Shown: piece by piece, positions 16,911 through 33,874 of the stretch
Position numbering within the stretch: position 1 is the first letter of the stretch
Layout: each line of letters opens with the position of its first letter
Virus record (IMG/VR): IMGVR_UViG_3300024274_000264
DNA from: a virus
Direction: 5' to 3' (one strand)
DNA: 64,000 nt
Notes under the pieces: model-generated
What the model was told of the DNA's origin: nothing
The model's input: the letters and a program-made list of their open reading frames with translations, nothing else
Database searches by the model: none
Program-made: the position numbers and the translations under genes

Positions 16911-16932
16911 TTTTTTAAAGTAATATCTATAT

Positions 16933-17280
16933 TTGGGACCAAAAATGATATTCTACCAAATTTTTTGCTCAAACTGTGGAATGTTGTTTTTACCTTCTCA
17001 AGATATTAAATTTGCCGATCGATCGGCAAATGTTTTATGTTGTTCGAAGAATTGTTTAAAAATTCACAATTATAAATATTCTGCTTGGACAACACGTCAA
17101 AAAATAGATTTTAAATCCGCAAGAGATGTTATTACAACTACCATAAAAATAGTTGGTAATATTCCTGAAATTAACGAACTCTTAAAATTATCTTCGTCTC
17201 TAGTAATCGATGAATATTCCAATCAACAATTATTGAAAGAAATAATTGAAATGATAAAAGACAATATAATCCTACTGTAG
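16933..17280 (+). CDS. hypothetical Cys-rich (zinc-finger-like) protein
   Basis: CSNC...CCSKNC. Confidence 0.5.
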   Translation: MGPKMIFYQIFCSNCGMLFLPSQDIKFADRSANVLCCSKNCLKIHNYKYSAWTTRQKIDFKSARDVITTTIKIVGNIPEINELLKLSSSLVIDEYSNQQLLKEIIEMIKDNIILL

Positions 17281-17290
17281 AAAGATAACA

Positions 17291-18148
17291 ATGAATAAAA
17301 AAATAAAAGTGTTCTATAACGATAAACAGAATGTCGCAAACAACATTAGTTTTTCTCCGTCGGCAGGAAAACCAAAACGATTTGTTGAAGAAATAAAAAG
17401 TTTTGATTATGTCGAAATGATTGATAATTTTGAACCATATTCAAGAAATGATTTTTATTTAGGCCATGATCAACAACATGTTGATGCGGTGTTAAATTGC
17501 GAAAAACAAAATGGGTTTGAAAACAAACTTCAAGAAGTAGCAGAATCTCTGCATTGGACAAATGCTTCATTTTATGCTGCGGCAAAATCTGCATTCGAAA
17601 ACAAAACTTTTTCTTGTTCTCCAACATCGGGATTTCACCACGCAACATATAATGAATGTATGGGGTTTTGTACTTTTAATGGGCTTATACTAGCTGCGAT
17701 TAAGCTAAAGCAGCAATACCCAGATATTCTAATTTCAATTATTGATATTGATGCCCATTATGGAAATGGAACGGATGATATAATCAAAAGATTAAATTTA
17801 AAAGATTTTATCCACCACTATACTTTTGGTGGAGTTGTTGATAGTTTTGATAAAAAAACATTATTTTATGATTTCGAAGTGACATTAAAAAATGAAATGA
17901 ATAGATTCACAAAATATTGTGATTTAATTTTGTATCAAGCTGGCGCAGATCCTCACATTGAAGATCCATACGGAGGATATTTTACAACAAAAGAACTGCA
18001 TCAAAGAGACAAGATAGTTTTTGAATTTGCTAAAGAAAACAAAATTCCTGTTGCTTGGAATCTCGCAGGCGGCTATCATAAAAACTTTGATAAAGTATTA
18101 GAGGTTCATTTAAACACATTATCCGAGGCCCACGAATGGATTCTTTAG
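17291..18148 (+). CDS. histone deacetylase (HDAC/AcuC) family protein
   Basis: GFHHA, GFCTFN, DIDAHYGNGT, QAGADPH..DPYG, GGY. Confidence 0.93.
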   Translation: MNKKIKVFYNDKQNVANNISFSPSAGKPKRFVEEIKSFDYVEMIDNFEPYSRNDFYLGHDQQHVDAVLNCEKQNGFENKLQEVAESLHWTNASFYAAAKSAFENKTFSCSPTSGFHHATYNECMGFCTFNGLILAAIKLKQQYPDILISIIDIDAHYGNGTDDIIKRLNLKDFIHHYTFGGVVDSFDKKTLFYDFEVTLKNEMNRFTKYCDLILYQAGADPHIEDPYGGYFTTKELHQRDKIVFEFAKENKIPVAWNLAGGYHKNFDKVLEVHLNTLSEAHEWIL

Positions 18149-18450
18149 AAGCAATTTTAGAGTCTGGTTTGCTTGATGATCTTACAAATTTTCAAGAAGA
18201 AATAGCGATAGCTAAAATTCATGATTTAAATAAATTCTTTGAAGAAAGTAAGTACAAAGTTCCAGAAATGGAATTAGTCAATAGAATATTATTAGTTTTA
18301 ATAGTTGCTTTAGTATCACATAATATTTATTTTGAACTTGATGCGTTAATCAATATTGTCCATTTTGAAAGTTTAAACAGAAAAGAAAAAATTATAAATT
18401 ACGAAGAATTTTGTAAACATATTTTGTCTATAATGGTCCCAAAGAATTGA
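18136..18450 (+). CDS. hypothetical protein
   Basis: ORF in operon. Confidence 0.5.
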   Translation: MDSLEAILESGLLDDLTNFQEEIAIAKIHDLNKFFEESKYKVPEMELVNRILLVLIVALVSHNIYFELDALINIVHFESLNRKEKIINYEEFCKHILSIMVPKN

Positions 18451-18488
18451 AATAAGGATTAGTTATTGTATGAGAGGTATTAAAAATT

Positions 18489-18875
18489 ATGCTCACAAGA
18501 CAACAGATAAAAAGCTGTATAACAAAAGTGGGCAGGGTAACAACCTATACAATGTTTTTTGAAATTATCAAAGATGAAGAAGAAAATGAATGTTTTTTTA
18601 ACATTGTCTCACTAACAGAAGAAGAAATTAAAGAATTAGTTCCTGTAAAAATTATTTCAAAAAGAAAAGTTAAAAGATTTTTTAGTGACATTTATCAAAT
18701 AAATGATATGGGAAAATACAGAGACGAGAAAGAAATTATAGATTTTTATTTTCCAACAATAATGTATGAACATTTCTCAATTAAACAAAAGTTTTTTATT
18801 TTTGCTGAGTGTTATGATTTTCTTGTAAATAAAAAACTATTAAAACCAATACCTACAATAAAAGTAAATATATGA
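18489..18875 (+). CDS. member of ~120-aa 'SPRK...PKIEV' paralogue family
   Basis: ISKRKVK and C-terminal PIPTIKVNI. Confidence 0.6.
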   Translation: MLTRQQIKSCITKVGRVTTYTMFFEIIKDEEENECFFNIVSLTEEEIKELVPVKIISKRKVKRFFSDIYQINDMGKYRDEKEIIDFYFPTIMYEHFSIKQKFFIFAECYDFLVNKKLLKPIPTIKVNI

Positions 18876-19261
18876 AAAAGAAAAATACAGAAATTAAATT
18901 TAGTATTAAAAAAGGTATTAACCCTAACCATTTAATAATTGCTTTTTCTCACTATGATATTTACACAAAAGCTTTTTCTGATGTTAGAATGATATTCGAT
19001 ACATTTGACTTTTTTTTAAAAATACATGAGTTTTTAACTCCTCGAAAAATAAAGTCCTTATACAAGAAAGAACTTGATCGAACTTTAGTTTCATTGAGTT
19101 TTATGGATAATAAAAATTATAAATTCATAGAAATGAAGGGATTACCGTTTGTTGACAAATATTATTGTAAGTGGATCATTACATTTAAGACTTATAGAAA
19201 ATTAAAAAAATATATAGGGAATTTTATTGTTGAGCCTCAAAAAATTATAGTTGGCACTTAA
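18872..19261 (+). CDS. member of 'SPRK...PKIEV' paralogue family
   Basis: LTPRKIKSL and C-terminal EPQKIIV. Confidence 0.65.
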   Translation: MKKKNTEIKFSIKKGINPNHLIIAFSHYDIYTKAFSDVRMIFDTFDFFLKIHEFLTPRKIKSLYKKELDRTLVSLSFMDNKNYKFIEMKGLPFVDKYYCKWIITFKTYRKLKKYIGNFIVEPQKIIVGT

Positions 19262-19289
19262 ATAAAACTAAATTAATATTTATATTCAA

Positions 19290-19580
19290 ATGGATCAAAA
19301 ACCAAAACCGCTGTCAAACGATTTATCACCAAGAAAAATTAGTTCACATAATTTTAAACTTGTTCCTGTAAAAAAATTTAGAATTGTTAATGAGTTTTTT
19401 GAGGCGGTTACAATTGATGGAAAAACTGATCCATTGTTTGATTCGTGGGAAATGGCTGAAAAATCGATCAAAGAATATTTAAGTTTGTCGCAAACAATGC
19501 GGGGTAAATATACTATAATCGTAGTATACATTAATTTGCCTTCTGAGATGAAAAACGAGACCAATGTCGAATCAAAATAA
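19290..19580 (+). CDS. hypothetical protein
   Basis: ORF in operon. Confidence 0.5.
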   Translation: MDQKPKPLSNDLSPRKISSHNFKLVPVKKFRIVNEFFEAVTIDGKTDPLFDSWEMAEKSIKEYLSLSQTMRGKYTIIVVYINLPSEMKNETNVESK

Positions 19581-19917: not shown

Positions 19918-19954
19918 TATTGCTACCGCGAAAACGAGGCGCTACACATGAAGT

Positions 19955-20604: not shown

Positions 20605-20979
20605 ATGAGAAAATCAACTACCAAAACTACAAAAAAATCAACTCGTAAACCAACTTCTTCGCGAAAGGTTACAAAAACATCGCGAACAACTGGTACAACA
20701 AATTCAACGTCGCGGAAACCAGCGGCAAAACGAACTGCTCGGTTGAGCAGCTCGACAATGATCTTTAATTTTAAAGATTCTTCATTTGTTACTGGTTTTC
20801 GTTGGGTTGCAAACTCAACTGATTCAACAACTGGAAACTTAACTGTTTCCATGAAAGATGGTTCTCGATATCTGTATCGGAATGTTTCGAAACAGATTCC
20901 TCAAAATTGGCGTCGACGCCAATCAGCGGGCAGTTTCTTTGTGAAATACATCAAAGAGATGAAATCGGAACGAGTTTAA
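20605..20979 (+). CDS. KTSC-like domain protein with K/R/S/T-rich histone-like N-terminal tail
   Basis: MRKSTTKTTKKSTRK...; SSFV...LTVSMKDGSRYLYRNV...SAGSFFVKYIK. Confidence 0.75.
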   Translation: MRKSTTKTTKKSTRKPTSSRKVTKTSRTTGTTNSTSRKPAAKRTARLSSSTMIFNFKDSSFVTGFRWVANSTDSTTGNLTVSMKDGSRYLYRNVSKQIPQNWRRRQSAGSFFVKYIKEMKSERV

Positions 20980-21018
20980 TTTTAGTTTCTTAAAAAAAAC
21001 CAAAAAAACTCTTAGTTG

Positions 21019-21057
21019 AATGCCTCGTGGATATAAATCTGCGGGGCATTTTCTTTT
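21019..21057 (+). terminator. intrinsic terminator
   Basis: AATGCCTCGTGGAT-ataa-ATCTGCGGGGCATT hairpin (with G-U pairs) plus T tract. Confidence 0.8.
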
Positions 21058-21058
21058 A

Positions 21059-21086
21059 TTGACAACTAATATTTTGGTTTTATCTT
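21059..21086 (+). promoter_or_regulatory. sigma70-type promoter
   Basis: TTGACA-N16-TATCTT directly after the terminator, before 21093. Confidence 0.55.
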
Positions 21087-21092: not shown

Positions 21093-21506
21093 ATGGAACG
21101 TATTTTCATTACTTGCTTTCCATCTATTGAGAAATATTCATTTCATTTCATTAAAGACCAAACAGAAGTTGGTTTTTTATCTATTATTGTACCAACAGAA
21201 GTGAGTCTGAATAGACTTAAACAGATAGAAAAAAGGCAAACTTATATTAGATGGTGGAAAGAAAATGTGTTTAATAAACCCTATGTAGATTATTCTTTTA
21301 TTGAAAAAGAATTTCGCGGCAAAGGCTATGGAAAAAAACTTTATAAAAGTGCCGCGATCTGGCTTAAAATTAAATTTAGTTTAAAACTTTGGGCTTCTCA
21401 AAATCAATCAAAAGAAGCAAAACGCCTATGGAACTCATTATTAAATAATAATGATTCTTTATTTATCACGGATGGCGATTCTTTAGAATTTTTAGGATTT
21501 AAATAA
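21093..21506 (+). CDS. GNAT-family acetyltransferase
   Basis: IEKEFRGKGYGKKLY acetyl-CoA motif, QS..AKRLW. Confidence 0.75.
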   Translation: MERIFITCFPSIEKYSFHFIKDQTEVGFLSIIVPTEVSLNRLKQIEKRQTYIRWWKENVFNKPYVDYSFIEKEFRGKGYGKKLYKSAAIWLKIKFSLKLWASQNQSKEAKRLWNSLLNNNDSLFITDGDSLEFLGFK

Positions 21507-21863
21507 ATGAATAGAGATAAAACTGAAATACATGTTTTTATTCGCGCTTGTTGCGATAAGGTCGCGTTCGAAATTCATAAAATAAATTTGACTATTCCTT
21601 TCTATAGTCCTTATGTGTGGACATATAAAGTAAATGCTATACTCTCCCCAAGAAAAATTAATTCGATGTTTAAATTTAAACCAAATTTTTCATTATATCA
21701 AATATTAATTCCCTACAGTACAACTAACGTGATAAATGAAGCCGTTTCTCTTTCCAATTCGTCAGAAGTGTTTATCAAAACATATGATTTATTTACTTAT
21801 TTAAATTTCGTAAAACCTAAAAATTTCTATCCGCTCCCGAAAATTGAGATTCAACTAAAATGA
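21507..21863 (+). CDS. member of 'SPRK...PKIEV' paralogue family
   Basis: ILSPRKINSM; PLPKIEIQLK. Confidence 0.7.
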   Translation: MNRDKTEIHVFIRACCDKVAFEIHKINLTIPFYSPYVWTYKVNAILSPRKINSMFKFKPNFSLYQILIPYSTTNVINEAVSLSNSSEVFIKTYDLFTYLNFVKPKNFYPLPKIEIQLK

Positions 21864-22231
21864 ATAGCATAGAATTTTGGCAAACAGCAACATGTAAAGG
21901 TATTAAAGAATATGTTAAGTTTGAGAGGCGAATAGATGAATTTAAAGATCATTATTCGAGCGTATTTTGTAAAAATGACTGTCTTTCAGTTGTTAAAATT
22001 TTAACTCCAAGAAAATGGAAACAAAAAACAAAATCTTTTGCATGTCAAAGCATGTATGAAATAATGTTATTTTCAAAATTAGATAAACATATTATAACAT
22101 TTAATCGACCATTTTTAGAAAAGCAATTTTCCCATCTTTTTATTGATCAAGTTAATCTTAATCGAATTAAAAAAGTATTAAACATATTACACACTTTTGA
22201 ACCTCAAAAAATTGAGGTAAATCTGAAATGA
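21860..22231 (+). CDS. member of 'SPRK...PKIEV' paralogue family
   Basis: ILTPRKWK; EPQKIEVNLK. Confidence 0.7.
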   Translation: MNSIEFWQTATCKGIKEYVKFERRIDEFKDHYSSVFCKNDCLSVVKILTPRKWKQKTKSFACQSMYEIMLFSKLDKHIITFNRPFLEKQFSHLFIDQVNLNRIKKVLNILHTFEPQKIEVNLK

Positions 22232-22614
22232 GAAAAAAAGAAAAACCGAGAATCAATTTTTTCAGATTTAGATCGAATATACTTTCATTTATCCAAAGTT
22301 CTGATATTTTAGATTTTTATGAGTTTAAAACATCAATTATTATTCTTAATAGAATTCTTTCTTCTCGTAAAATAAAAGCTTTGTTTTCGATAAAAATTAA
22401 TATGCCTTTATTCGAAGTCGTTATTTTCGATTCCACTTTTGAAGATTTACAGAACGATTTAAAAGTTTACTTGAGCAATAAAACCTATTATGGAAATTGT
22501 ATTTCAATTGATAATCGCCTTTATTTAGATATTCAAAACTTGAAAAAACTTTTAAATTGGGCAAACCCATCTAATATTATTCAACCTCAAAAAATTGAGG
22601 TAAATCTTAAATGA
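22200..22614 (+). repeat. 32-bp direct repeat (1 mismatch) at gene junctions 22200-22231 and 22583-22614
   Basis: AACCTCAAAAAATTGAGGTAAATCT(G/T)AAATGA. Confidence 0.85.
22228..22614 (+). CDS. member of 'SPRK...PKIEV' paralogue family
   Basis: ILSSRKIKAL; QPQKIEVNLK. Confidence 0.7.
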   Translation: MRKKEKPRINFFRFRSNILSFIQSSDILDFYEFKTSIIILNRILSSRKIKALFSIKINMPLFEVVIFDSTFEDLQNDLKVYLSNKTYYGNCISIDNRLYLDIQNLKKLLNWANPSNIIQPQKIEVNLK

Positions 22615-22967
22615 AAAAATTTAAAGAAGAAAAGTTTGATGTTTTTTATACCGACGAGAATGAAAAGAAATTATATCTCCTTAAAGATCAATGCTTTCGT
22701 TTTACTGGAACTGAATACTTTATTCTAATTCAAAATATTTACACGATTCGAAAACTAAAAGAAAAATTTAAATTTATTTCAAATGAACCAATTTACAGAA
22801 TTGTAATTTATGCCACGTATCTACTACAAAACGAAGAACTTTCTAAACTTAGAACTTGGAAAGACCAAGAATTTTTTCTTTGCAAAAAACAATTTAATAG
22901 ATTACGTGACTTTTTAAAAGTTAAAAAAATAATTGACTTGCCTCGAATTGAGGTTTCGTTTAAATGA
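22611..22967 (+). CDS. member of 'SPRK...PKIEV' paralogue family
   Basis: IYTIRKLK; DLPRIEVSFK. Confidence 0.7.
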   Translation: MKKFKEEKFDVFYTDENEKKLYLLKDQCFRFTGTEYFILIQNIYTIRKLKEKFKFISNEPIYRIVIYATYLLQNEELSKLRTWKDQEFFLCKKQFNRLRDFLKVKKIIDLPRIEVSFK

Positions 22968-23341
22968 GAAATAAAAAACCAATAGAATTGTATGGATATA
23001 TGACTGCATATGATGCGAAAACTTTAGCTCCCTTTATTAAAAAGGCAAACATTTTAAGTGTAAGCTATTTAAATCCTAGCTGGCTATATCCAAGGTATTT
23101 TACATATCAAATTAAAGAACTGGAAATTGTTTTTTCAAGAAAATTTTTCGGAAAAACTAAGATCAAAACCAAAGAAACTCTAATTTTAATAGAAATTGAA
23201 ACTCGGCTTTATGAAAGAGAAAATACCACTCTCTATAAAACAAAAATCTTTGTGAATAAAAAAACAGTAAACAAATTATTATTTTATTTAAATCCAAAAT
23301 TTCACACTAATATTCCAAAAATAGAAGTCACGAAAAGATAG
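22964..23341 (+). CDS. member of 'SPRK...PKIEV' paralogue family
   Basis: VFSRKFF; NIPKIEVTKR. Confidence 0.65.
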   Translation: MRNKKPIELYGYMTAYDAKTLAPFIKKANILSVSYLNPSWLYPRYFTYQIKELEIVFSRKFFGKTKIKTKETLILIEIETRLYERENTTLYKTKIFVNKKTVNKLLFYLNPKFHTNIPKIEVTKR

Positions 23342-23356: not shown

Positions 23357-23611
23357 ATGTCAATGATCGAATTCCTAACAACAGATAAACTCGATGTAGA
23401 ATCGAGTAAACTACTAACAAAAATTGAATATAATCAACTTTATCACCAATTAACAATTTGGTTTAAAACAACAGGAGTAGCATATACATATAAAGGAGTC
23501 CCAGAAGAAACTTGGGAAGAATTAAAAAAAGCAGAGAGTAAAGGAAAATACTTTCATTCTTACATTAAAAACTTATACAAGTATGAAAAAATTGTCGATC
23601 GAAAAGATTAA
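23357..23611 (+). CDS. KTSC domain protein
   Basis: VESS..IEY...L.I.FK..G..YTYKGVP...AESKGKYFHSYIK. Confidence 0.9.
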   Translation: MSMIEFLTTDKLDVESSKLLTKIEYNQLYHQLTIWFKTTGVAYTYKGVPEETWEELKKAESKGKYFHSYIKNLYKYEKIVDRKD

Positions 23612-23666: not shown

Positions 23667-25391
23667 GTGGGAGGTCGGAAAATGAAAAACAAAACAGCGT
23701 TCGTAATGTGCAGTTTGTCGCTTTTGCTCGCTTCCGTAAGCGTTCAAGCCCAAACTTTTGGTGGTGGTCAAAACTCGCCACAAGATGAGTTTATTGTTGA
23801 TTTCAACGATTCTGTGTCTCAAAGCACAGTAAATGATATTGCTTCACAATATGGAGTTACTTTGCGGGCAAACAGTCCGCAAATGGTCGGTGAAGACAGA
23901 ATTTATGTTTTTAATGCCCCGCGAGAAGTTGGACAACGAATTGTTCGCCAACTTCAAACGAATCGAAACGTGCAGGCCGCGGATCAAAACCAAGAAATGC
24001 ACGCATTTTTCACGCCAAATGATCCACAATATTCTCAACAGTGGGGATTGCATCGCGTCGGTGTTGAACGAGCGTGGAATACCACCTGCGGTCGAGGAAT
24101 TCGAGTTGCTGTAATTGATACGGGCGTTGCGTGCGAAAATCACGATGGGTTTTCACAACTTTCTGATCTTAAAGGAACAAACTGTGTTGCTGGTTGGGAT
24201 TTTGTTAACGATGACGAACATGCAAATGACGACCAAGGGCACGGATCGCACGTTGCTGGAACAATTGCTCAAACAACCAATAACGGCGTTGGAGTTGCGG
24301 GAATTGCCTACTGCTCAACCATTATTCCTGTAAAAGTTCTTGATTATCGAGGCTCTGGAACGTTAGTAGACGTTGCAGAGGGAATTCGTTTTGCGGCGGA
24401 CGCTGGAGCGCATGTTATCAACCTTTCATTAGGTGGCGGACCTAGAAACCGAGTAATGGCCGAAGCGATTAGCTATGCTCGATCAAAAGGAACTGTGGTA
24501 ATTTGTGCCGCGGGAAACAATGGGAGATATGTTGAATCTCCTGCAAATGAAGAGGGTGCATTTGCTGTCAGTGCAATCGGAACGGGTGATATGATTGCTT
24601 CGTTTTCGTCGCGCGGCCCAGAAGTTGATATTGCGGCACCTGGAGTAAACATTCTCCAACAAACAATTTGTGAGCACGGCAGAGACGGTTGCGAACAATT
24701 CGCGGCGTGGTCTGGTACTTCAATGGCAACACCACACGTTGCAGGTATTACAGCCTTGATTATGTCTCAAGGCGTAACAAATGTGGATGCTGTCGAAGGA
24801 ATTTTGAGAAATTCGGCTCAAACTCCCGAACACGGCGATTCAAACCCACAATTGTATGGTGCTGGTATTGCTAGTGCCGAATCTGCGCTCGCGGCAATTA
24901 AAACAAGACAAGTTTTGTATCGCGGGTTCTCTCTCGCGCTAATGTTTGCACTCGTTACATCTTGGATTACAAAGAAAGGTGGAAAACTTGAATCTACAAA
25001 GAAATGGTTGTTACCAGCGCTTTTTGCTTCTGTCGGTTTGTTCTTTTTACCAATGATTTTGCCAGCCTCAATACCAGGACTTGAAATTATTTCGCGGCCA
25101 CCTGGTGATTTGACAATGTTTACAAATGGATTTATTCATCAATTCCTTCCTCTGGGAAGCGCTTTTCTACCAATTGTTTTGAGTGCAATATTCTTTAATC
25201 GTAAACATCTTCGACCTATGGTTGGAGGATTTTCACTTGGCACCGCTGGTTTCTTAATGGGAACATTCCTATCAGGTTTACATGCGGCACCTTTCGGCTG
25301 GTTTGCAATGCTTGTTTGGACTGTCGGCAATCTTTTTGTGATGGGTACCCTTGCGAGATTGATGCTTGACAGCACAAAAAACCAGTCATAA
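23667..25391 (+). CDS. secreted/membrane-anchored S8 subtilisin-like protease (likely start ATG 23682)
   Basis: Signal peptide, prodomain, VAVIDTG, HGSHVAG, GTSMATPHVAG, several C-terminal hydrophobic helices; visibly higher GC. Confidence 0.93.
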   Translation: MGGRKMKNKTAFVMCSLSLLLASVSVQAQTFGGGQNSPQDEFIVDFNDSVSQSTVNDIASQYGVTLRANSPQMVGEDRIYVFNAPREVGQRIVRQLQTNRNVQAADQNQEMHAFFTPNDPQYSQQWGLHRVGVERAWNTTCGRGIRVAVIDTGVACENHDGFSQLSDLKGTNCVAGWDFVNDDEHANDDQGHGSHVAGTIAQTTNNGVGVAGIAYCSTIIPVKVLDYRGSGTLVDVAEGIRFAADAGAHVINLSLGGGPRNRVMAEAISYARSKGTVVICAAGNNGRYVESPANEEGAFAVSAIGTGDMIASFSSRGPEVDIAAPGVNILQQTICEHGRDGCEQFAAWSGTSMATPHVAGITALIMSQGVTNVDAVEGILRNSAQTPEHGDSNPQLYGAGIASAESALAAIKTRQVLYRGFSLALMFALVTSWITKKGGKLESTKKWLLPALFASVGLFFLPMILPASIPGLEIISRPPGDLTMFTNGFIHQFLPLGSAFLPIVLSAIFFNRKHLRPMVGGFSLGTAGFLMGTFLSGLHAAPFGWFAMLVWTVGNLFVMGTLARLMLDSTKNQS

Positions 25392-25394
25392 CAT

Positions 25395-25958
25395 GTGAAT
25401 ATGACACTAGCACTAATTGTCGCGGCAACAAAAGAAGGGCATATCGGAAACGATAATGCCCTTTCTTGGTTTCTTCCTTCTGATCTAAAGTGGTTTAAGG
25501 AGCTTACGGTGAATAACACTGTTGTAATGGGTAGAAAAACTTACGAATCCATCGGTAAGCCTCTTCCTAAAAGAATAAATCACGTAATATCGAAAACTTT
25601 AGATCAAAAAGAGGGAATTAAGATTTTTGCTTCGGTTGAAGATTGGTTTGACAAAAATCGAAAATTTCTTAATTCAGAAACCGAAAAAGCATTTGTTATA
25701 GGAGGTGTAGAAATTTATAATCAGTTTTTACCCTTTGTTACAGAAGTTTATTTTTCCGAATTAGAGGAATCTGAAGAACAAAAAAAGTATTCCAAATATG
25801 ACAAATCTATTTCTTTTTCTCCCCAATCCTTTTTGAATTCTGGTTGGAAGTTGTTGGAAAACGAACAAGTGATCGACGAAAAAGGCTTTTTTAAAGCCAG
25901 TTCTGAAAAAGTTTCAATCAAATATGAAAGAAATGTGCTTAAAAAAAATGAGAAATAA
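25395..25958 (+). CDS. folA: dihydrofolate reductase
   Basis: LIVA, IG..N.L.W.LPSDL..FK, MGRKTYESI, PLPKR, VIGG. Confidence 0.93.
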   Translation: MNMTLALIVAATKEGHIGNDNALSWFLPSDLKWFKELTVNNTVVMGRKTYESIGKPLPKRINHVISKTLDQKEGIKIFASVEDWFDKNRKFLNSETEKAFVIGGVEIYNQFLPFVTEVYFSELEESEEQKKYSKYDKSISFSPQSFLNSGWKLLENEQVIDEKGFFKASSEKVSIKYERNVLKKNEK

Positions 25959-26559
25959 AAGATTCAAATATGAAAATGGAACAATTGTAATAAAAGAGCG
26001 AGAAAACAAAGACGTTCCAAAAGATTTCACAGGTGTTTTCGAGCATAAAAATGGAGATAGGTCTTGGTTTAAAGAAGGAAAAAGACATAGAATAGGTGGC
26101 CCAGCTGTTATGGAGAATGGTTCCAAATATTGGTATAAAGATGGCAAACTTCATCGAGAGGATGGGCCTGCGATTATAGATAGATTCGGTGCCAAATATT
26201 GGTATAAAAATCATTCACTTCATAGATTAGATGGACCAGCGATTGAATACAAAGATGGATCAAAAGAATGGTATAAAGAGGGAAATCGCCATAGAATAGA
26301 CGGGCCTGCCGTAGAACATATAAAAAATATGAGCGGATCAAAAGAATGGTGGATTGATGGAAACTATTTTACTTGGAATTTGTTAGCCCAATTAATGAAA
26401 AAAGAAATTTATGTTGGAAAAGAAAAAGGAAAATATGGGCTTGAATGGCTAAAATTTCTCACAGAAGAAAATGGGATTTGTGAATTTCCGATTGTACCAG
26501 AAATGGAAAAAGAAAGAAGTTTTATTTATCTATTCATTTCTTTAAATAAAGAAAAATAG
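25924..26559 (+). CDS. LHREDGPA-repeat protein
   Basis: Four WYK.G.(L/R)HR.DGPA-type repeats; C-terminus shared with 30020..30427. Confidence 0.8.
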   Translation: MKEMCLKKMRNKRFKYENGTIVIKERENKDVPKDFTGVFEHKNGDRSWFKEGKRHRIGGPAVMENGSKYWYKDGKLHREDGPAIIDRFGAKYWYKNHSLHRLDGPAIEYKDGSKEWYKEGNRHRIDGPAVEHIKNMSGSKEWWIDGNYFTWNLLAQLMKKEIYVGKEKGKYGLEWLKFLTEENGICEFPIVPEMEKERSFIYLFISLNKEK

Positions 26560-27186: not shown

Positions 27187-27834
27187 ATGAAAATACTAAA
27201 ATCAATAAACACAAACTTCGCTATCTGGTCTATGCTAAATGGAGATCATGCTTTAGTTGAAAACGTAAAAAAATTAGACAAAGAACTGGTTGAAAAACCT
27301 GATTTTTCATCAAAACTAGAAAATAGTTTAAGAAAAGAAGTTTTCCTTTCCAAAAGAAAATGGATTCATGATTATATGAAAGATGCTTCACTTTGTGTTG
27401 CCGAGATAACCTTTGATGAACTTTTAAAGTTTGAATCTTGCTACTCAGATATTAAATTCGAACAGTTTTTAGATTCATATCAATTATCAACGGAACAAAG
27501 TAAAGAATTTACAATTGTCAGAAAAACAAAAGACAATGTTCAAAAAGGAATTGAGGCAATTGATGATATTAAAAAAAGAGTTGAAAGTTTAAAAATTGAT
27601 CTCAAGAAACAAAAAAACAAAGCAGTTCCAGCTTGGAAAATTTGTTCTGAAAAATATCTAAATTCTGAAAATTTATGGATCGCTACAAACCGCGGATTAA
27701 TGGTTAAAAAGAAAGATTCTAGCACAATAAAAGTTGTAGATGGTACTCATAGACTTTTATCTTATGGGTTGCTTGTTCGCTTAGAGAAGTTAAATATGCA
27801 AAAAATAAAGTGTATTTTTTGGGAAGAGGTTTAA
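27187..27834 (+). CDS. ParB/Srx-like domain protein
   Basis: VVDGTHRL. Confidence 0.55.
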   Translation: MKILKSINTNFAIWSMLNGDHALVENVKKLDKELVEKPDFSSKLENSLRKEVFLSKRKWIHDYMKDASLCVAEITFDELLKFESCYSDIKFEQFLDSYQLSTEQSKEFTIVRKTKDNVQKGIEAIDDIKKRVESLKIDLKKQKNKAVPAWKICSEKYLNSENLWIATNRGLMVKKKDSSTIKVVDGTHRLLSYGLLVRLEKLNMQKIKCIFWEEV

Positions 27835-27898: not shown

Positions 27899-28447
27899 AT
27901 GAAATCTTTGAATAGAGATGACTTCAGAAACCAAGTTTTTAAGCGAGATAAATTTTCTTGTGTTGCATGCGGCGAAAAAGCAATATTTGATTCAAGCCAA
28001 GAACCTACAAATTTAGATGCTCACCATATTATTGAAAGGAAACTTTGGGGAGAAAGTCAGGGGTATTTTGAAGACAATGGCGCAACCGTTTGCGAACCTT
28101 GTCATATAAAAGCAGAGGAAACATTAATTTCTTGTAATGAATTAAGGCAACTTTGTGGCATCAAAACGACAATATTACCAGAGCAATATTATAAAGATCA
28201 AGAAATTGACAAATGGGGTAACTTTGTTTTACCAAATGGAATTAGATTAAGAGGAGAGCTTTTTTATGAAGAATCTGTACAGAAAGTTTTAAAACCTGTA
28301 ATTCATTTATTTGAAGAATATGTTAAATACCCAAGAACATATCATGTTCCTTGGAGTCCTGGAGCTAAAGATAAAGAAGAGCGAACTTCTCCAATAATGG
28401 ATCATTTTTTGAATAGGGAAATTGTGGTTCTAGAAAAATTGTTATAA
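27899..28447 (+). pseudogene. HNH-RNA ligase fusion, N-terminal fragment (stops inside motif I)
   Basis: RD...C..C, DAHHI, C..CH (HNH), then KYPRTYHVPWSPG...VVLEKLL* where EKxDG is expected. Confidence 0.75.
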
Positions 28448-28481
28448 AACAATATTTCATTGTATCAATAATAATTTTGCT

Positions 28482-29504
28482 ATGTCCAAAAAATTAACAG
28501 ATGAAGAAAAAGTTCAAAAAATCATAAAAAATAAAAATATTAACGTCAAAGAAGTCATTAATTGTTATAGAGATTTGGAATACAGTTTACCCAAATTAAA
28601 GAAACAGTTTAATTTGGGTTTTAAAGAAAGTGTTTTGATATTAAAACAGAATAATATAAAGATTAGATCAATTTCAGAAAGTAGAAAAACAAATACGTTT
28701 AAAAAAGAAAATAAGGAAAATCTATTAGAAAAATATGGTGTGTCGAATGTAAGTAGTCTTGATTCTGTTAAAGAAAAAAAGAGAAAAACTTCTTTAAAAA
28801 ATTACGGAGTAGATAATATTTGGAAAACAAAAGATTATGGAATTAAAGCACAAGCTTCTAAAGAAAAGAAATATGGAATAAAAGCTATTCCTAACTTATA
28901 CGGAAAAGCAAATTATTTCGGATGGAAAAGTTCTACAGAAGAAGAAAAAAAGAAAAGGCTTCAAAATTTATGGTCAGAAAGTATTTTATCTTGGAATTCT
29001 TTAACAGAAGAACAAAAAACTAAAATAATTCAAAAACGTTCGAGAAAAATTGTTTCTTGTTATAATTCTTCGCTTGAACGTAAAATAAAAAATTCTTTAC
29101 AGAAATTAAATATACTATATAGCGAACAATTTTGGATAAACCGAAAAAGTTATGATTTTCATATTAAGATTTTTAATGTAAATTATGTATTAGAAATTAA
29201 TGGAGATTATTGGCATGCTAATCCTCTTTACTATAAGGAAAATGATTTTATTAACTATCCATTAGGTTTAATTAAAGTTAAAGAAATTTGGGATAAAGAT
29301 TTAATAAAAAAACAAAATGCGGAAAAATATGGTTATAAAACATTATATATTTGGGAAAGCGAATTGAAAAATAAATCTGAAATTGAAATTGAAAATCTAA
29401 TAAAAGAAAAACTTAAATTAAATAAAATCTCGTACAGTGCTCAAAATGAAAAATGTGAAAATTTTAAACATAAAAAAATAAAATTCATATCAAAAAAAAC
29501 ATAA
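28482..29504 (+). mobile_element. free-standing Vsr-like (putative homing) endonuclease
   Basis: EKYGV repeats, YDF, LEINGDYWHANP, IWESE. Confidence 0.8.
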
Positions 29505-29522
29505 TATGGAAATTGGTAAAAA

Positions 29523-30023
29523 TTGTTTCTGGTTATAAGCAATTACATACATGCACGTTCGCTAGATAGTTTAGAAAATCATCCATCAAGAACAAGAATT
29601 AAAGCTTTTCATTCCACAATAAAAAATGATTTACCAAAGGGTTGGAGATTTTGTTTCGAAAATGTTTTCGCAAAGCATAGTATTCATTATAAAAGTTTAA
29701 AAGACTACCATTACCTTCTTTCCGTTTGGAATGAATACAACACTTGTCTTTCTTGGGATGAAACTAAAGAATGGGCAGACTTGTTAGAAGTACCAACACC
29801 AGAAATTCTTTATAGAGGAATTTATAACGAAAAAATTTTGAAAGATCTTTATCGGCCCATTTCTAATAATGGAGATGAGTGTGAAGGTTATGTTATTCGA
29901 CCTACAGATTCCTTTCCTTATAGAGATTTTAGAAGATTTAATTTAAAGTTCGTAAGAGAAAATCATGTTCAAACTTCTGAGCATTGGAAGCAATCTAAAA
30001 TAATAGAGAATGAAATAAAGTGA
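29523..30023 (+). pseudogene. RNA ligase C-terminal fragment
   Basis: YIHARSLD, ENVFAKHSIHY, CLSWDET, EGYVIR, KFVRENHVQT..HW. Confidence 0.75.
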
Positions 30024-30427
30024 ATAATAAAATGAATAATATAATAATATTATGTAACGACGAGAAACCTCCTGAAAACTATACGGGAAAAATTAAATGG
30101 GAAACAGGTATGATTGAAATCCGTTTAAATGGAAAAGTTCATAATGTAAGTGGGCCAGTACAGGTTTATGACGAAGAAGGATTTAGACCATTAAAAGTTT
30201 TTTGGATAGATGATGTCAACTATTCTTTTAAATTGGAATATGTATTTCCAAAAAATAAAAATATGATTTTTCTTGGAAAAGAAAAAGGCAGATATGATCT
30301 TGAATGGTTAAAGTTTTTAACAGAAAATGGCTTAGAAGAATTCCCATTGATTCCAGAAATGGGAAAAGATGAAAAAATTTCTCGTTTTATTTCTAACTTT
30401 ACTAATCTAAAAGGAGAAAAAGAATAA
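30020..30427 (+). CDS. short paralogue of 25924..26559
   Basis: Shared GKEKG.Y.LEWLKFLTE.....FP..PEM. Confidence 0.7.
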   Translation: MNNKMNNIIILCNDEKPPENYTGKIKWETGMIEIRLNGKVHNVSGPVQVYDEEGFRPLKVFWIDDVNYSFKLEYVFPKNKNMIFLGKEKGRYDLEWLKFLTENGLEEFPLIPEMGKDEKISRFISNFTNLKGEKE

Positions 30428-30428
30428 A

Positions 30429-31268
30429 ATGCTTGCAAAAGCAGATATCTACTATAAACAAAATTTATATAAACTAATAACGAAAGGTAATAAAGATGAA
30501 AATCCAAGACCGAAATATAAAGATGGAACTCCTGCGAATAGTTTGTTTGTAACACAAGTGTTTGAAGAATATGATATAGAAAATGGTGAATTGCCATTTA
30601 CAACACTTAGAAACACAGCAGTTAAATCAGGAATAAAAGAAATTTTTTGGATTTATCAACTTCAATCTTCCAAACTAGAAGATACAAAAAAACTTGGGAT
30701 TAATTGGTGGAATGAATGGGAAATTGGAAATGGAACAATTGGTCAAAGATATGGGGCAACAGTTAGAAAATGGGATTTAATGAATAAACTTTTGCATGGA
30801 TTAAAACAAAATCCATTCGGAAGAAGACATATCCTTAACCTATATCAAGAATCTGATCTTCTTGAAACTGAAGGTTTGTATCCTTGTGCATTTGAAACAA
30901 TTTGGTCTGTCCGAAAAGACTTAACCTCTAAAAACTATATACTTGACATGACTCTTATTCAAAGAAGTTCAGATTATATTATGGCCAACTGGATTAACAA
31001 GGCACAGTATTATGCTTTACAGTTAATGGTTGCCTCGGATCTTGGTTACAAACCAGGCAAATTCTGCCACTATGTTCATAATCTTCATATTTACGATAGG
31101 CATTTAAATGCGGCAAACGAAATCATAAAAAGAGAATCGTTACAAGAACAGCCAAATTTTACTTTAAAACAAAGCAAAAGTTTTTACGAGTTTAATATCG
31201 ATGATTTTGAATTCGCCAATTTTGATAAACCGCAAAAAATCAATTCTGAACTAGAGATAGCAATATGA
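30429..31268 (+). CDS. thyA: thymidylate synthase
   Basis: YG, GRRHI, LYPCAF, QRSSD, HIYDRH. Confidence 0.93.
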   Translation: MLAKADIYYKQNLYKLITKGNKDENPRPKYKDGTPANSLFVTQVFEEYDIENGELPFTTLRNTAVKSGIKEIFWIYQLQSSKLEDTKKLGINWWNEWEIGNGTIGQRYGATVRKWDLMNKLLHGLKQNPFGRRHILNLYQESDLLETEGLYPCAFETIWSVRKDLTSKNYILDMTLIQRSSDYIMANWINKAQYYALQLMVASDLGYKPGKFCHYVHNLHIYDRHLNAANEIIKRESLQEQPNFTLKQSKSFYEFNIDDFEFANFDKPQKINSELEIAI

Positions 31269-31642
31269 TAAACTACGACAAAACAAAAGAAGAGCTTCTT
31301 TCTATATTAAAAGATCCTTCATTTAAATCAAAGTTTGAAGAAGTCAAAAAGAAAATAGAACAAGAGATATTGGGAAACAAAAAACTTTTAGTAACTAACG
31401 TTTTTGAAAAATATAAACTAAGTTACCACTTAGATCCAAACTATAATAGCGGATTAATGCTTTATGGTTTATACACACTGTTAACTGAAAAAGGTATTCA
31501 GGAAAGAGTTTTGGGAGTTTCCTGTAGAGAATATTTAAAATTTGTTTCAAATAAAAACCCTATTATGATCGAGACAAAACCTTTTCAAGAGGATGAGTTT
31601 CCTTCAGAAATGAAAGTTGAAAACTTCGGAGATTGGATGTAA
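31265..31642 (+). CDS. hypothetical protein
   Basis: Coupled ORF. Confidence 0.5.
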   Translation: MINYDKTKEELLSILKDPSFKSKFEEVKKKIEQEILGNKKLLVTNVFEKYKLSYHLDPNYNSGLMLYGLYTLLTEKGIQERVLGVSCREYLKFVSNKNPIMIETKPFQEDEFPSEMKVENFGDWM

Positions 31643-32034
31643 AAATGGAAAATGATATAAAACAAGTTCTTGTGTGGAGAAAAGACTTAAATGTTAGAAA
31701 AGGTAAAATAGCTGCCCAACTTGCCCACGCAAGTATAAAATGGCTAACTCAAAGGATTAGAAACAGTCCTGAAAAAAAAGCTATTGATCTTTTAGATGAA
31801 GAAGAAATTTCCTGGATCGATGGCAATTTTAAAAAAGTTGCCGTTTATGTCGAAACAGAAAAAGAATTGATAGAATTGTATCAAGCAGCAAAAGAGACGG
31901 GGTTGACCGTAAATTTAATAACCGACGCGGGATTAACTGAGTTTCATGGACAGCCAACTAAAACATGCTTAGCTATAGGACCACACTCTAGCGAGAAGAT
32001 TGATCCGCTGACTAGAGAGCTAAAACTGTTATGA
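31633..32034 (+). CDS. pth2: peptidyl-tRNA hydrolase, Pth2 type
   Basis: KQVLV.RKDL...KGKIAAQLAHAS, DAGLTEF, TCLAIGP, LKLL. Confidence 0.92.
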   Translation: MDVKMENDIKQVLVWRKDLNVRKGKIAAQLAHASIKWLTQRIRNSPEKKAIDLLDEEEISWIDGNFKKVAVYVETEKELIELYQAAKETGLTVNLITDAGLTEFHGQPTKTCLAIGPHSSEKIDPLTRELKLL

Positions 32035-32489
32035 AATATAATATAAAACTCATTTGTGAAAAACTCAATGTGACGCACCCACAACATGATAAAATAATGG
32101 AACGTGTGTCCGAACTGAAAGCAGATGTTGAAAGTTTATTTAAAGATCAGGAATATCTGGATTTCCACTTAAAAAACAGAAACGAAGAAGCGACAGAAAA
32201 ATCAGCTTTTATCTTTTTAAGACATTTGCCAAAGTATACACTCTCATTAAGTTTTCAAAACCATGAGTTTTACATTGCTGAATATGGAGAATATTTGTCT
32301 GAAACAAAGATTGAAATAATGATAGCTAATGTTTTTAACATTAAGGAATATATCTTTAAAAAAATTCCAAATTATTTGAAATATAGAACTGGTGCATTTT
32401 CTCTTGACCTTATAGATTATGAATTTCCGATAACAGCTTTGCCAAAAATTCATATCAAAATAAATGAACAATGGAATGGCCTCTGGTAA
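32031..32489 (+). CDS. hypothetical protein
   Basis: Coupled ORF; C-terminal LPKIHI resembles the paralogue-family tail. Confidence 0.5.
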   Translation: MKYNIKLICEKLNVTHPQHDKIMERVSELKADVESLFKDQEYLDFHLKNRNEEATEKSAFIFLRHLPKYTLSLSFQNHEFYIAEYGEYLSETKIEIMIANVFNIKEYIFKKIPNYLKYRTGAFSLDLIDYEFPITALPKIHIKINEQWNGLW

Positions 32490-33874
32490 ACATAATGAAA
32501 CTAAAATCAAAAACATATAGAAAATATACTGGAAAGGTTTATGACCTTTCTGTTGAGAATAAAAGTTCGTATAACGTCGAGGGTTTTCCTGTGCATAATT
32601 CTGGTGCGGGATCTTTAGTTTGTTACCTTTTAGGAATTACCCAGGTTGATCCAATTAAACATGGACTTTTGTTTGAAAGGTTTTTAAGTAAAAAGAAAGC
32701 ATGTCTCGGAGAAGATTCTTGGGTCTTGACCTATACGGGTCCTAAACAATTAAAAAATATTAAAATCGGAGACCGAATTAAAACTCATACAGGAAAATAT
32801 TTTCCTACCGTGGCAATTGATCTAACAAAAGATCGTACAGACTGGTATGAAATTACGTATGGTTATTGGCTAAATCATACCAGTCTTGGTTTGAAAGGTT
32901 TTCATAGACCATTTTATAGCGTTGGAAAATTGATAGCTAGTTCAAATCATAAATTTATTACAGCTCAACAATTTAATTGTCCACATATACAAAAAATTCC
33001 TTTAGATGTAAAATATAAAGATGTATCTGTTGAATTTATAAAATCAGTAGTAGATAATAGTTTTACAAAAACTCAGCCAAGATTTTATGGGAATGGATCT
33101 GATAATAAAACTTGGGAAATTTTTTCTATCGAAAAAGGTAAAGTCCCATTAACTTTAATTGATATTAAATTGGAAGCCGACCATACATTTTGGGTTTCAG
33201 ATAAAAAAGATGGCGTGTATGTTTTATCCCACAATTCCTTACCTGACATTGATAGCGATTGTGCAGACAGAGAAGAGGCAATTAAAATTCTTATCGAGCA
33301 TTTTGGAGAAGAATGCGTATTACCTGTTTCAAACTATAACCAACTTCAACTTAAATCCTTAATTAAAGATTTGGCTAGGTTATACCAAATTCCATTTGAA
33401 GAAATCAATCCAATTACTCAAAAAATTGAAAAAGAAACACTTGACGAAGATAAGAAACAAGATGGTTTCGATCGAGGTGTTTGGTTTCTTTCTTATGAAA
33501 GTGCCGAGAAAAACTCTCCAACTTTTAACAAACTATTGGAAGATTATCCACAACTTGAAGCGAGCATAAAAGTATTATTCAAACAAATAAAATCATGTTT
33601 TACGGAGGACACATTACTGTTGACTAACAGCGGTTGGAAAAAATACTCTGAAATTACAGAGCAAGACAAGATAGCATTTATTGACAACGTTGGAGAAATT
33701 CAATATAGTTCAGACTTTTTTAAAGTCGAAAATGGAGAAAAAGAAGTTTACAAAATTGAAACTTTAGATGGAAAGGTTTTGGAACTAACTGAAGACCATT
33801 TAGTTCAAACCGATAAAGGTTGGAAACAGGTAAAAGATTTAACAAATGAGGATTCTCTAATCGGATGGATATAA
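32471..33874 (+). CDS. dnaE: DNA polymerase III alpha, piece 2 of 4 (IntC1-extein-cis intein-extein-IntN2; likely start ATG 32495)
   Basis: VHN|SGAGSLVCYLLGIT.VDP...FERFL; catalytic SLPDIDSD; ends KS|CFTED... Confidence 0.95.
   Translation: MEWPLVNIMKLKSKTYRKYTGKVYDLSVENKSSYNVEGFPVHNSGAGSLVCYLLGITQVDPIKHGLLFERFLSKKKACLGEDSWVLTYTGPKQLKNIKIGDRIKTHTGKYFPTVAIDLTKDRTDWYEITYGYWLNHTSLGLKGFHRPFYSVGKLIASSNHKFITAQQFNCPHIQKIPLDVKYKDVSVEFIKSVVDNSFTKTQPRFYGNGSDNKTWEIFSIEKGKVPLTLIDIKLEADHTFWVSDKKDGVYVLSHNSLPDIDSDCADREEAIKILIEHFGEECVLPVSNYNQLQLKSLIKDLARLYQIPFEEINPITQKIEKETLDEDKKQDGFDRGVWFLSYESAEKNSPTFNKLLEDYPQLEASIKVLFKQIKSCFTEDTLLLTNSGWKKYSEITEQDKIAFIDNVGEIQYSSDFFKVENGEKEVYKIETLDGKVLELTEDHLVQTDKGWKQVKDLTNEDSLIGWI
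32495..32599 (+). mobile_element. split intein C fragment 1 (35 aa)
   Basis: KVYDLSVE...YNVEGFPVHN followed by Ser +1. Confidence 0.92.
32702..33235 (+). mobile_element. contiguous mini-intein (178 aa, no endonuclease) in dnaE
   Basis: CLGEDSWV..., SSNHKF block B, DIKLEADHTFW...LSHN|S. Confidence 0.9.
33596..33871 (+). mobile_element. split intein N fragment 2 (92 aa)
   Basis: CFTEDTLLLT.SGWK, LTEDHLV, GWKQVKDL then stop. Confidence 0.92.

Follow-up and report, generated by a model that had tools for sequence, protein, structure and literature searches.

The sole replicative DNA polymerase of this 391-kb phage, DnaE, is encoded in four separately translated pieces with split inteins at the joints, and some 30 ordinary phage genes, spanning 15.6 kb, lie between pieces 1 and 2. 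The window analyzed is a stretch of 64,000 nucleotides from virus record IMGVR_UViG_3300024274_000264, a metagenome assembly that carries direct terminal repeats and is rated complete. The halves of the first intein, IntN1 and IntC1, share a strand and keep their order, and a conserved terminator-like hairpin lies within the interval that separates them; this wide gap between the polymerase halves is real and is confirmed in this phage. We consider it probable, at nearly four in five, that the gap dates from a single ancient endonuclease loss and dislocation of the halves, after which cassettes turned over in the ordinary way. No other replicative polymerase was detected in the complete genome, so the pieces must yield an active enzyme.

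The exteins of the four pieces are colinear with dnaE as it occurs, without interruption, in dozens of related phages. With the inteins removed (520 + 34 + 120 + 275 + 343 aa), DnaE matched uninterrupted dnaE by tblastn as one HSP from residue 1 to about 1280, and such a single-HSP match was obtained for the majority of some 90 related metagenome loci, at 34–49% identity. The extein of piece 1 (P1) aligns with residues 1–520 of uninterrupted homologues and covers positions 2–65 of the Pfam DNA_pol3_alpha profile; piece 2 (P2) resumes the profile at position 62–65, where P1 stopped. An earlier ATG of P2 lies at 32471, and the start was set at the conserved ATG at 32495 because all relatives align from residue 9. 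The features are collected in Table 1.

Table 1. Features of the broken dnaE gene and of the interval within its first break.
Feature	Coordinates	Strand	Evidence or remark
dnaE piece 1 (P1), N-terminal part and IntN1	15060-16910	+	Pfam PHP, DNA_pol3_alpha, intein N-part
P1 N-extein, 520 aa, PHP and palm start, ends GAGRG	15060..16619	+	Pfam
IntN1, 96 aa and stop	16620..16910	+	Cys1, block B T-K-D-H, PDB intein matches
Interval between IntN1 and IntC1, 15,584 bp, 30 ORFs	16911..32494	+	synteny with five relatives
First gene 3' of IntN1, 115 aa, without known family	16933..17280	+	kept in four relatives
HDAC-family gene	17291..18148	+	Pfam Hist_deacetyl E 1.4e-28
KTSC-domain gene 1, core of block	20605..20979	+	domain match, synteny
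Intrinsic-terminator-like hairpin, 15 pairs and T tail	21018..21051	+	best site of scan
Promoter-like TTGACA-16-TATCTT, directly 3' of terminator	21059..21086	+	consensus match only
GNAT-like acetyltransferase gene	21093..21506	+	weak match, 21.2 bits vs cut-off 20.7
Tandem array, five fast-diverging paralogues, ~120 aa each	21507..23341	+	phmmer clustering
KTSC-domain gene 2, core	23357..23611	+	domain match, synteny
S8 subtilase protease gene, core	23667..25391	+	E 1e-53
Dihydrofolate reductase gene folA, core	25395..25958	+	DHFR E 3e-38
Repeat-protein family member	25924..26559	+	42 family copies in genome
215-aa gene, family not assigned, core	27187..27834	+	synteny
Cassette: HNH, DUF7487/Vsr-like nuclease, RNA ligase, second repeat-protein copy	27899..30427	+	only in window
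HNH nuclease gene	27899		not in first-pass list
DUF7487/Vsr-like nuclease gene	28482		not in first-pass list
RNA ligase gene	29523		not in first-pass list
Thymidylate synthase gene thyA, core	30429..31268	+	E 2e-59
Peptidyl-tRNA hydrolase PTH2 gene (pth2), core	31633..32034	+	E 8e-31
152-aa ORF directly 5' of IntC1, without family	32031..32489	+	only in window
dnaE piece 2 (P2), IntC1 at its start	32495-33874	+	Pfam, alignment
IntC1, 35 aa, VHN then Ser+1	32495..32599	+	residue alignment
P2 after IntC1: 34-aa extein, mini-intein, 120-aa extein with PDID active-site motif, IntN2	32600..33874	+	Pfam, alignment
Contiguous mini-intein within P2, 178 aa	32702-33235	+	
IntN2	33596-33871	+	
ORF in second break, 151 aa, without known family	33865..34320	+	orthologue in G002
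dnaE piece 3: IntC2 (45 aa), 275-aa extein (fingers), IntN3 (88 aa)	34307..35533	+	
dnaE piece 4: IntC3 (37 aa), 343-aa extein (HHH_6 and C-terminal part)	35691..36833	+	

The synteny comparison proposed by the first-pass annotation was performed with five other assemblies from different samples, and in each of them the same core genes come after P1. P2 is reached in three of the five, across gaps of 14.1, 11.3, and 10.9 kb (15.6 kb here), and the other two end at the contig edge after a block of at least 9.2 kb and of about 10 kb or more. A syntenic core of about 13 gene families is found in the interval in all clade members, and cassettes have been gained or lost at at least five junctions. 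The wide arrangement persists down to about 60% DnaE identity, and breaks 2 and 3 are compact in all relatives. On the L153 contig, genes located 9 kb past piece 4 in the window come after the block, and pieces 2–4 are absent; this contig is either rearranged further or chimeric.

The same intein allele is present at the same site in about 17 other lineages, as halves 0.1–2.4 kb apart or as a contiguous mini-intein, and the compact gaps hold a homing endonuclease gene or nothing, in agreement with the earlier statement that phage breaks usually hold only such a gene. In L056, L139, and their kin, one nuclease ORF separates the halves; in L070, the break holds a nuclease ORF and one extra 421-aa gene, and the L056/L139-type and L070 nucleases are homologous (E 4e-28). 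Within the sister clade, some alleles have the compact fractured form and others (L140, L141, and L144) are uninterrupted. A search of break 1 for remnants of the nucleases of L056 and L070 found none, the ORFs adjoining IntN1 (16933) and IntC1 (32031) gave no nuclease match, and no nuclease motif was detectable in the latter; break 3 differs from break 1 in that a nuclease remnant survives. Outgroups keep the order w89-w543-w1830 ... dnaE ... w38283-w39181 without the block, and neither thyA nor the S8 gene was present in sister-clade contigs of 37–91 kb. An outgroup with the intact block at another location was looked for and none was found, so a single translocation and stepwise accretion are indistinguishable.

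In the history that we favor, break 1 would once have been a fractured gene of the kind seen in the sister clade today. The endonuclease gene would have been lost, and a block of 11 kb or more would then have come to separate the halves, comprising the nucleotide-metabolism genes folA and thyA together with the S8 protease, KTSC, pth2, and small unassigned genes. This separation would have been tolerated, and inherited, because trans-splicing requires no linkage of the two genes. Later, the block may have behaved like any accessory region, with the HDAC, GNAT, tandem array, HNH, nuclease, and RNA ligase cassettes gained or lost, and the internal terminator-promoter module would place piece 1 and pieces 2–4 on different transcripts. 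Where the block lies most likely reflects a frozen accident allowed by the split intein and not a device.

The first-pass annotation had described the interval as about 15.6 kb with roughly 30 genes, including HDAC, GNAT, KTSC, S8 protease, folA, thyA, and pth2 genes and a paralogue array. The size and count were reproduced (30 ORFs of at least 77 aa, 29 of them on the + strand), domain matches were found for each named gene, and the five genes of the array clustered by phmmer. Its proposal of a landing pad or breakpoint stood in part: the interval does vary, but it is mainly an inherited block rather than a place where new insertions keep arriving. According to this proposal, the split break is a preferred site of repeated insertion and rearrangement with a growing set of independent arrivals, which we regard as a clearly less probable alternative to a single old dislocation. 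The interval length is different in every relative, different cassettes occupy the variable junctions, L070 has its single extra gene within the same break, and thyA and piece 2 may be parted by an additional breakpoint in L153. The HDAC gene occurs only in the window, G001, and G002 among the relatives compared, the GNAT-like gene is missing from G003 and G004, G002 and G003 each carry three of the array paralogues at the corresponding location, and the repeat-protein copy number at 25924..26559 differs among relatives. Gene junctions D3 and D4 are repeated within the paralogue array. In L057, genes homologous to those for the HNH nuclease and RNA ligase adjoin an uninterrupted dnaE, and the local GC content of the S8 gene is about 41%, compared with 30% for the window.

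Gene turnover was compared between the interval and its flanks. Window genes without a tblastn match in G002 amounted to 11/30 in the interval and 2/55 in the flanks (Fisher P = 1e-4), which favors the landing pad. However, the reverse comparison gave 10/30 and 13/64 G002 genes absent from the window (P = 0.20), and phmmer still links many of the "absent" genes, which are paralogues that diverge fast; pooled over both directions, about one-third of the genes were unmatched inside and about one-eighth outside. Indel events relative to the closest full relative occurred at 0.39/kb in the interval, not significantly above the 0.27/kb in the flanks (binomial P = 0.31), so the hotspot is only weakly supported, and a mild effect may exist. 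The clade-wide synteny of the core families indicates that most of the block is old, and breaks 2 and 3, like the same break in the other lineages, do not exceed 2.4 kb.

The terminator noted earlier in the interval was recovered, and a terminator hairpin occurs at the same position within the interval in five phages, with unrelated stem sequences. This positional conservation suggests that P1 and P2, and with them the two polymerase halves, are probably on separate transcripts, as had been proposed. Promoter-like elements similar to that directly 3' of the terminator are present in G001 and G002, whereas the earlier claim of internal promoters in general was not borne out, since sigma-70-like hits were at chance level (91 found vs 87.5 ± 9.2 expected). 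Speculatively, in line with the timing or stoichiometry gate of the first-pass annotation, the layout could also have been selected as a regulatory gate, with P1 in the early replication operon and pieces 2–4 behind the terminator-promoter together with the dTMP genes. Piece 1 would then be produced alongside the early helicase and RNR genes, trans-splicing would license assembly only after dTMP supply is turned on, and active polymerase would form only with the nucleotide-supply module on, or in a set ratio. The unrelated stems at one position point to selection for termination there, folA and thyA are encoded on the same strand after the terminator and ahead of piece 2, where gene junctions are short or overlapping, and the arrangement has been retained over the DnaE divergence given above. 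We nevertheless consider a gate unlikely: the halves stay adjacent in most lineages that carry this intein, the gene immediately 5' of piece 2 is different in every relative, which argues against a tuned junction, and clusters of nucleotide-metabolism and replication genes are common in phages lacking split genes.

The first-break site is the conserved GRG↓S(A/G)AGS motif of DnaE, in the palm (arrow, insertion point). The first residue of the intein is Cys (GAGRG↓C, residue 521 of P1), which does not vary among five relatives or in L056, L139, and L070; the Thr and His of IntN1 are likewise unchanged in the five relatives, and block B TxxH (T-K-D-H) is invariant in two alignments. The VHN↓S junction, ...VHN↓SGAGSLV in P2, was found in the window, G002, G003, G004, L056, L139, L070, and phage G. 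Cys1, TxxH, and HN↓S are conserved throughout the window clade and the sister clade, in L070, and in the contiguous intein that Bacillus phage G carries at the same site. IntN1 matched the NrdJ-1, Ssp DnaE, and Npu DnaE inteins in PDB (E 4e-7 to 1e-5), with the RecA mini-intein also among the matches. Divergence was 44–50% for the intein and 44–45% for the extein, and this similarity fits long co-inheritance. By these sequence features, break 1 is a true, canonical class-1 split intein (HINT fold), and the pieces would be ligated by protein trans-splicing. The intein halves score 29.2 and 33.3 bits, below the Pfam Intein_splicing cut-off of 35.8 (E 9e-7 for IntN1, under the curated cut-off), as might be expected if the halves docked P1 to P2 non-covalently or if P1 were a decaying remnant. 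The invariance of Cys1, TxxH, His-Asn, and Ser+1 in the clade and in distant alleles, and the resemblance of IntN1 to active split inteins, make such a lack of splicing very improbable. Misassembly or chimerism of truly adjacent halves, named earlier as a refutation and conceivable for a metagenome assembly, can be dismissed, because the same break and core block recur in independent assemblies from different samples at 60–80% identity and the record is complete with terminal repeats.

A known counterpart of the first break is the intein of gp329 of Bacillus phage G (JN638751.1), also a jumbo phage, which occupies the identical DnaE site (PGRG↓C ... VHN↓SAAGS) and whose IntC part is homologous to IntC1. 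The rest of the phage G gene is also in pieces, over about 9 kb; its intein at this site, however, is contiguous, and its later breaks are without intein ends and are attributed by one review to self-splicing introns (PMC7824862). As described in PMC2677866, PolB of Nanoarchaeum equitans is likewise a polymerase from two dispersed genes with split-intein halves, but it is a family B polymerase of an archaeal chromosome with a single break. The cyanobacterial split dnaE, for which PMC2677866 cites Wu, Hu and Liu (1998) and Caspi et al. (2003), shares with the phage gene a replicative DnaE that is trans-spliced (presumably so here), non-adjacent genes, probably separate transcripts, and fixation throughout a clade. 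Unlike that gene, the phage gene is broken at GRG↓S in the palm by another intein allele, has its halves on one strand in the right order 11–16 kb apart rather than at separate loci, and carries three further inteins.

Dassa et al. (2009) described fractured genes of environmental phages, including three DnaE loci (PMC2677866). As in those genes, a phage replication gene is here broken inside an intein, the halves keep the same strand and order, and the IntN and IntC lengths fall within the reported ranges (88–105 and 33–54 aa). Breaks 2 and 3 and the sister-clade break 1 fit that layout, in which the halves flank a gene for a Vsr-like or PD-(D/E)xK-like nuclease, whereas break 1 here has no endonuclease beside either half and holds about 30 genes, 15.6 kb, and its own terminator. 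Steps III–IV of the model of Dassa et al., endonuclease loss and then dislocation of the halves, were inferred from cyanobacteria and not observed in phages (PMC2677866). Break 1 corresponds to these steps, a wide gap between split halves that the 2009 gene-breaking model predicts and that is rarely seen in phages.

The window (GC about 30%) corresponds to the reverse strand of positions 197141-261140 in a 390,884-bp IMG/VR virus record that has direct terminal repeats and is rated complete; the two are identical apart from 13 single-base differences, mostly transitions, within 391-2292. No close relative was found among GenBank phages (megablast of 14000-35600, no match), and no tRNA genes or Rfam families were detected between 14 and 38 kb of the window. 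The polymerase gene dnaE lies in four pieces (P1-P4), and its three breaks carry the split inteins IntN1/IntC1 to IntN3/IntC3. Cutting the translations at the intein ends gave exteins of 520, 34, 120, 275 and 343 aa, and the product spliced in silico (1292 aa) aligned to uninterrupted dnaE as a near-full-length single HSP, with 34-49% identity, in the majority of the roughly 90 loci from metagenomes and viruses. The first junction, GAGRG|C ... VHN|SGAGSLV, falls within the conserved GRGS(A)AGS motif. The residues Cys1, TxxH, His-Asn and Ser+1 are all present and are invariant in the window clade and in distant alleles, and IntN1 matches the NrdJ-1, Ssp DnaE and Npu DnaE inteins among solved structures. 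Every DNA_pol3_alpha match in the genome falls in the four dnaE ORFs; a family B polymerase is absent from the genome, and the PolA-like signal is one fragment below threshold. From these sequence features, we infer that the DnaE pieces are joined by trans-splicing.

Features of the split dnaE region, in window coordinates
Feature	Coordinates	Length	Content
P1 ORF	15060-16910		PHP domain, DNA_pol3_alpha profile positions 2-65, intein N-part (Pfam)
Interval between P1 and P2	16911-32494	15,584 bp	30 ORFs of at least 77 aa
Terminator-like hairpin	21018-21051		Strongest terminator-like site of the region
Paralogue array	21507-23341		Five genes of one family
S8 protease and folA region	24001-26000		GC 41.5%
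25924-family members	25924-26559; 30020-30427		
P2 ORF	32471-33874		DNA_pol3_alpha profile positions 62/65-98 and 99-170, two HINT matches (Pfam)
Contiguous mini-intein in P2	32702-33235	178 aa	
P3 and P4 ORFs	34307-35533; 35691-36833		Fingers and HHH parts (Pfam)
P3-P4 gap	35534-35690	157 bp	One frame gives a short peptide ending ...RIWESEI...
IntN1/IntC1		96 + 35 aa	Split pair, break 1
IntN2/IntC2		92 + 45 aa	Split pair, break 2
IntN3/IntC3		88 + 37 aa	Split pair, break 3

The true start of P2 is the ATG at 32495, where the first-pass annotation had also placed it, because the relatives align to the 32471 ORF from its residue 9 onwards; this start sets the end of the interval. The separation of the halves by about 15.6 kb and roughly 30 genes is thus confirmed. 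At the third break, the RIWESEI motif in the P3-P4 gap resembles the WESE motifs of Vsr-like nucleases at 6545 and 28482, and the gap looks like a decayed endonuclease gene. In the relatives G003 and G004, P3 ends with ...AYSFNA then SLKSD, where the window instead has Q|CLHGDS, so the intein of these phages at this break may be another allele or may begin with another residue.

The wide first break was also found in relatives. Pattern scans of IMG/VR yielded four (G001-G004; P1 identity 66-80%), and a fifth, L153 (IMGVR_UViG_3300010885_080705), shows about 60% identity. All five share a gene order after P1: ORF 16933 (unmatched in L153), ORFs 18136, 18489, 19955 and 20295, the first KTSC gene, the second KTSC gene, the S8 protease gene, folA, copies of the 25924 family followed by ORF 27187 (neither matched in L153), then thyA, pth2 and P2. 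The length of the interval varies among relatives (G002, 14.1 kb; G003, 11.3 kb; G004, 10.9 kb); in G001 and L153, the contig ends or the gene order changes before P2. Since independent assemblies from different samples share this arrangement, misassembly is ruled out.

Individual relatives differ in further respects. In L153, the genes next after thyA are homologous to 41882 and 42376 of the window (L153:16546-19045). P2-P4 are nowhere on this 35.7-kb contig, and a search of IMG/VR for a contig carrying P2-P4 of the same phage found none; the C-terminal polymerase pieces may have been relocated to another locus, or the contig may be chimeric. The mini-intein of P2, contiguous in the window, is split in G002 (L023:751-3290, minus strand) and G003, with a gene for a 311-aa nuclease-like protein between its halves, and G002 has an additional mini-intein inside the PDID|SD active-site motif. 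By this reading, five pieces and five inteins would go into G002 DnaE. A P1 protein of the clade, P0006 (72% identity in the intein part), was deposited from a 226-kb contig of a MAG labelled 'Leptospiraceae bacterium', which may be a hint of the host or a binning artefact.

In the window, 29 of the 30 interval ORFs lie on the same strand. Family matches agree with those listed previously, namely HDAC, GNAT (weak), two KTSC genes, S8 protease, DHFR, thymidylate synthase and PTH2, and the five-gene array proved to be a genuine paralogue family; an HNH nuclease, a DUF7487/Vsr-like nuclease and an RNA ligase are also encoded. HDAC occurs only in the window, G001 and G002, and GNAT in these and L153. 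The array has five copies in the window, three each in G002 and G003, and none detected in G001. The number of 25924-family copies and the minus-strand ORF 26622 are variable parts of the interval, and the HNH/nuclease/RNA-ligase cassette and ORFs 18872 and 32031 are window-only. The 25924 family has 42 copies in the genome, mostly in long arrays elsewhere; ORF 25924 itself contains four internal repeats of 66-69 nt each, and its spot in the interval holds from zero to about seven copies depending on the relative. The GC content of the S8/folA region contrasts with about 30% elsewhere. Because the S8 protease gene is conserved in all clade members (62-85% identity), the region is either an old import still unadjusted to the genome composition or one whose composition is constrained. 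Homologues of the HNH (27899) and RNA ligase (29523) genes are paired directly downstream of the uninterrupted dnaE of the outgroup L057 (L057:14262-15269), and the pair seems to move as a cassette.

The first-pass annotation had proposed that the split intein made this site a neutral landing pad. Turnover was compared between the window and G002, the only relative covering the whole window, counting as an event any spacing change or replacement of at least 300 bp. The interval (15.6 kb) had six events and the flanks (48.4 kb) had 13, which gives densities of 0.39 and 0.27 per kb (binomial P = 0.31). Window genes for which tblastn found no G002 counterpart were concentrated in the interval (11/30 versus 2/55 in the flanks, P = 1e-4), several of these 'missing' genes being diverged array members that phmmer still connects. 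The reverse count of G002 genes unmatched in the window gave 10/30 versus 13/64 (P = 0.20), and one of the 10 is a site-b nuclease gene strictly outside the interval. Breaks 2 and 3 are compact in every relative. We conclude that the interval is no special insertion hotspot but an accessory region of normal fluidity, which may slightly exceed that of the flanks.

Of the internal promoters and terminator proposed for the interval, the terminator was upheld. Each of the five phages has, after the first KTSC gene, a perfect hairpin (13-16 pairs) followed by a T-rich tail, but the stem sequences are unrelated. That the position is conserved and the sequence is not argues for a functional terminator. 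Sigma-70-like promoter matches are overall at chance level; the hairpin is directly followed by a TTGAC(A/T) element and a -10-like element in three of the phages (the window, G001 and G002). P2-P4 lie on the same strand as folA and thyA, which precede them, and the gene junctions are tight. Given the conserved terminator, P1 and P2-P4 are probably on separate transcripts, as had been suggested. Overall, the original observation holds and its interpretation is supported in part.

The intein allele at this DnaE position (site a) is common at the same site elsewhere: a protein search restricted to IntN1 returned 87 P1-like proteins, and a motif scan of IMG/VR some two dozen DnaE loci. In L158 and L166, it takes the form of a contiguous mini-intein (about 390 nt), and gp329 of Bacillus phage G (L027, 239245-250008) likewise has a contiguous intein at the same GRG|S site. 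In L161, L165 and L167, it is split by gaps of 0.13-0.6 kb that leave no room for an endonuclease gene. About 10 loci, including the 461-kb phage L056/L142 and its relatives L138/L139, have one nuclease gene in a gap of 0.8-1.3 kb, and L070/L162 has a nuclease gene plus one extra 421-aa gene in a gap of 2.4 kb. The intein is absent from L140, L141 and L144 in the L056 sister clade. When the window clade is compared with L056 or L070, inteins and exteins have diverged equally. Outgroups keep the backbone w89-w543-w1830 ... dnaE ... w38283-w39181 (window genes by start coordinate), with the block absent; thyA and the S8 gene are absent from three sister-clade contigs of 37-91 kb, and in a complete 192-kb phage with uninterrupted dnaE, thyA lies about 110 kb away.

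Other fragmented DnaE genes were seen in this survey. On the 309-kb virus contig L173 (8636-19727), a contiguous site-a intein is followed by at least five further DnaE pieces over more than 9 kb, with a 3.9-kb gap following the FERFL motif. In phage G, DnaE stops after FERFLNP; it continues in the palm piece gp331, past a GIY-YIG gene, and again in gp339, past another seven genes. The later breaks of phage G, together with L052, were rejected as parallels, as no intein ends are visible.

The most economical history for break 1 has four steps: an intein would have invaded dnaE at site a, a nuclease gene would have split it, the nuclease gene would have been lost, and a block of at least 11 kb would have been inserted or translocated in the ancestor of the window clade. 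The block could have arrived either by a single translocation or by gradual accretion. A remnant of the site-a endonuclease was sought in the interval and none was found, nor does the C-terminus of ORF 32031 carry a Vsr-like tail; boundary repeats marking transposition of the block were likewise sought and none found. Homology between ORFs 32031 and 33865, which lie upstream of IntC1 and IntC2, was unsupported (BLASTP E = 0.16), and iterated HMM searches from the two gave the G002 orthologue of 33865 as the sole link. A relation of 33865 to a 160-aa ORF before IntC1 in G002, suggested by eye, gave nothing in phmmer at E < 0.05.

For annotation, phage DnaE 'fragments' many kilobases apart can form one functional gene. 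The clade offers several diverged natural split inteins, presumably orthogonal, and a natural system in which to ask whether unlinked halves alter the timing or dosage of a replicative polymerase.

Endonuclease loss and insertion or translocation are steps III and IV of the model of Dassa et al. 2009 (PMC2677866). In the 26 fractured loci that those authors described, of which three are DnaE loci, a free-standing endonuclease gene always separates the halves (PMC2677866); the roughly 10 site-a loci with one nuclease gene agree, as the first-pass annotation had held for phage fractured genes. A split PolB intein with an HNH gene has been reported in jumbo phage MIJ3, two jumbo-phage reviews mention inteins only in passing, and our limited literature search found no account of phage split-intein halves tens of genes apart. 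Dassa et al. contrasted their loci with the cyanobacterial dnaE halves, which are in separate loci (PMC2677866); how split-intein genes, dnaE-n and dnaE-c among them, came to occupy separate loci has been inferred rather than observed. Here, related phages present the whole series for one intein allele at one DnaE site. The intein is absent in some and a contiguous mini-intein in others; where it is split, the halves enclose an endonuclease gene, an endonuclease gene and one cargo gene, or 11-16 kb of genes with the endonuclease gone; and one contig (L153) possibly shows full dislocation. With this series, comparative genomics can test the later steps of the Dassa model, and break 1 is a naturally occurring halfway stage from fractured genes to dispersed split genes.
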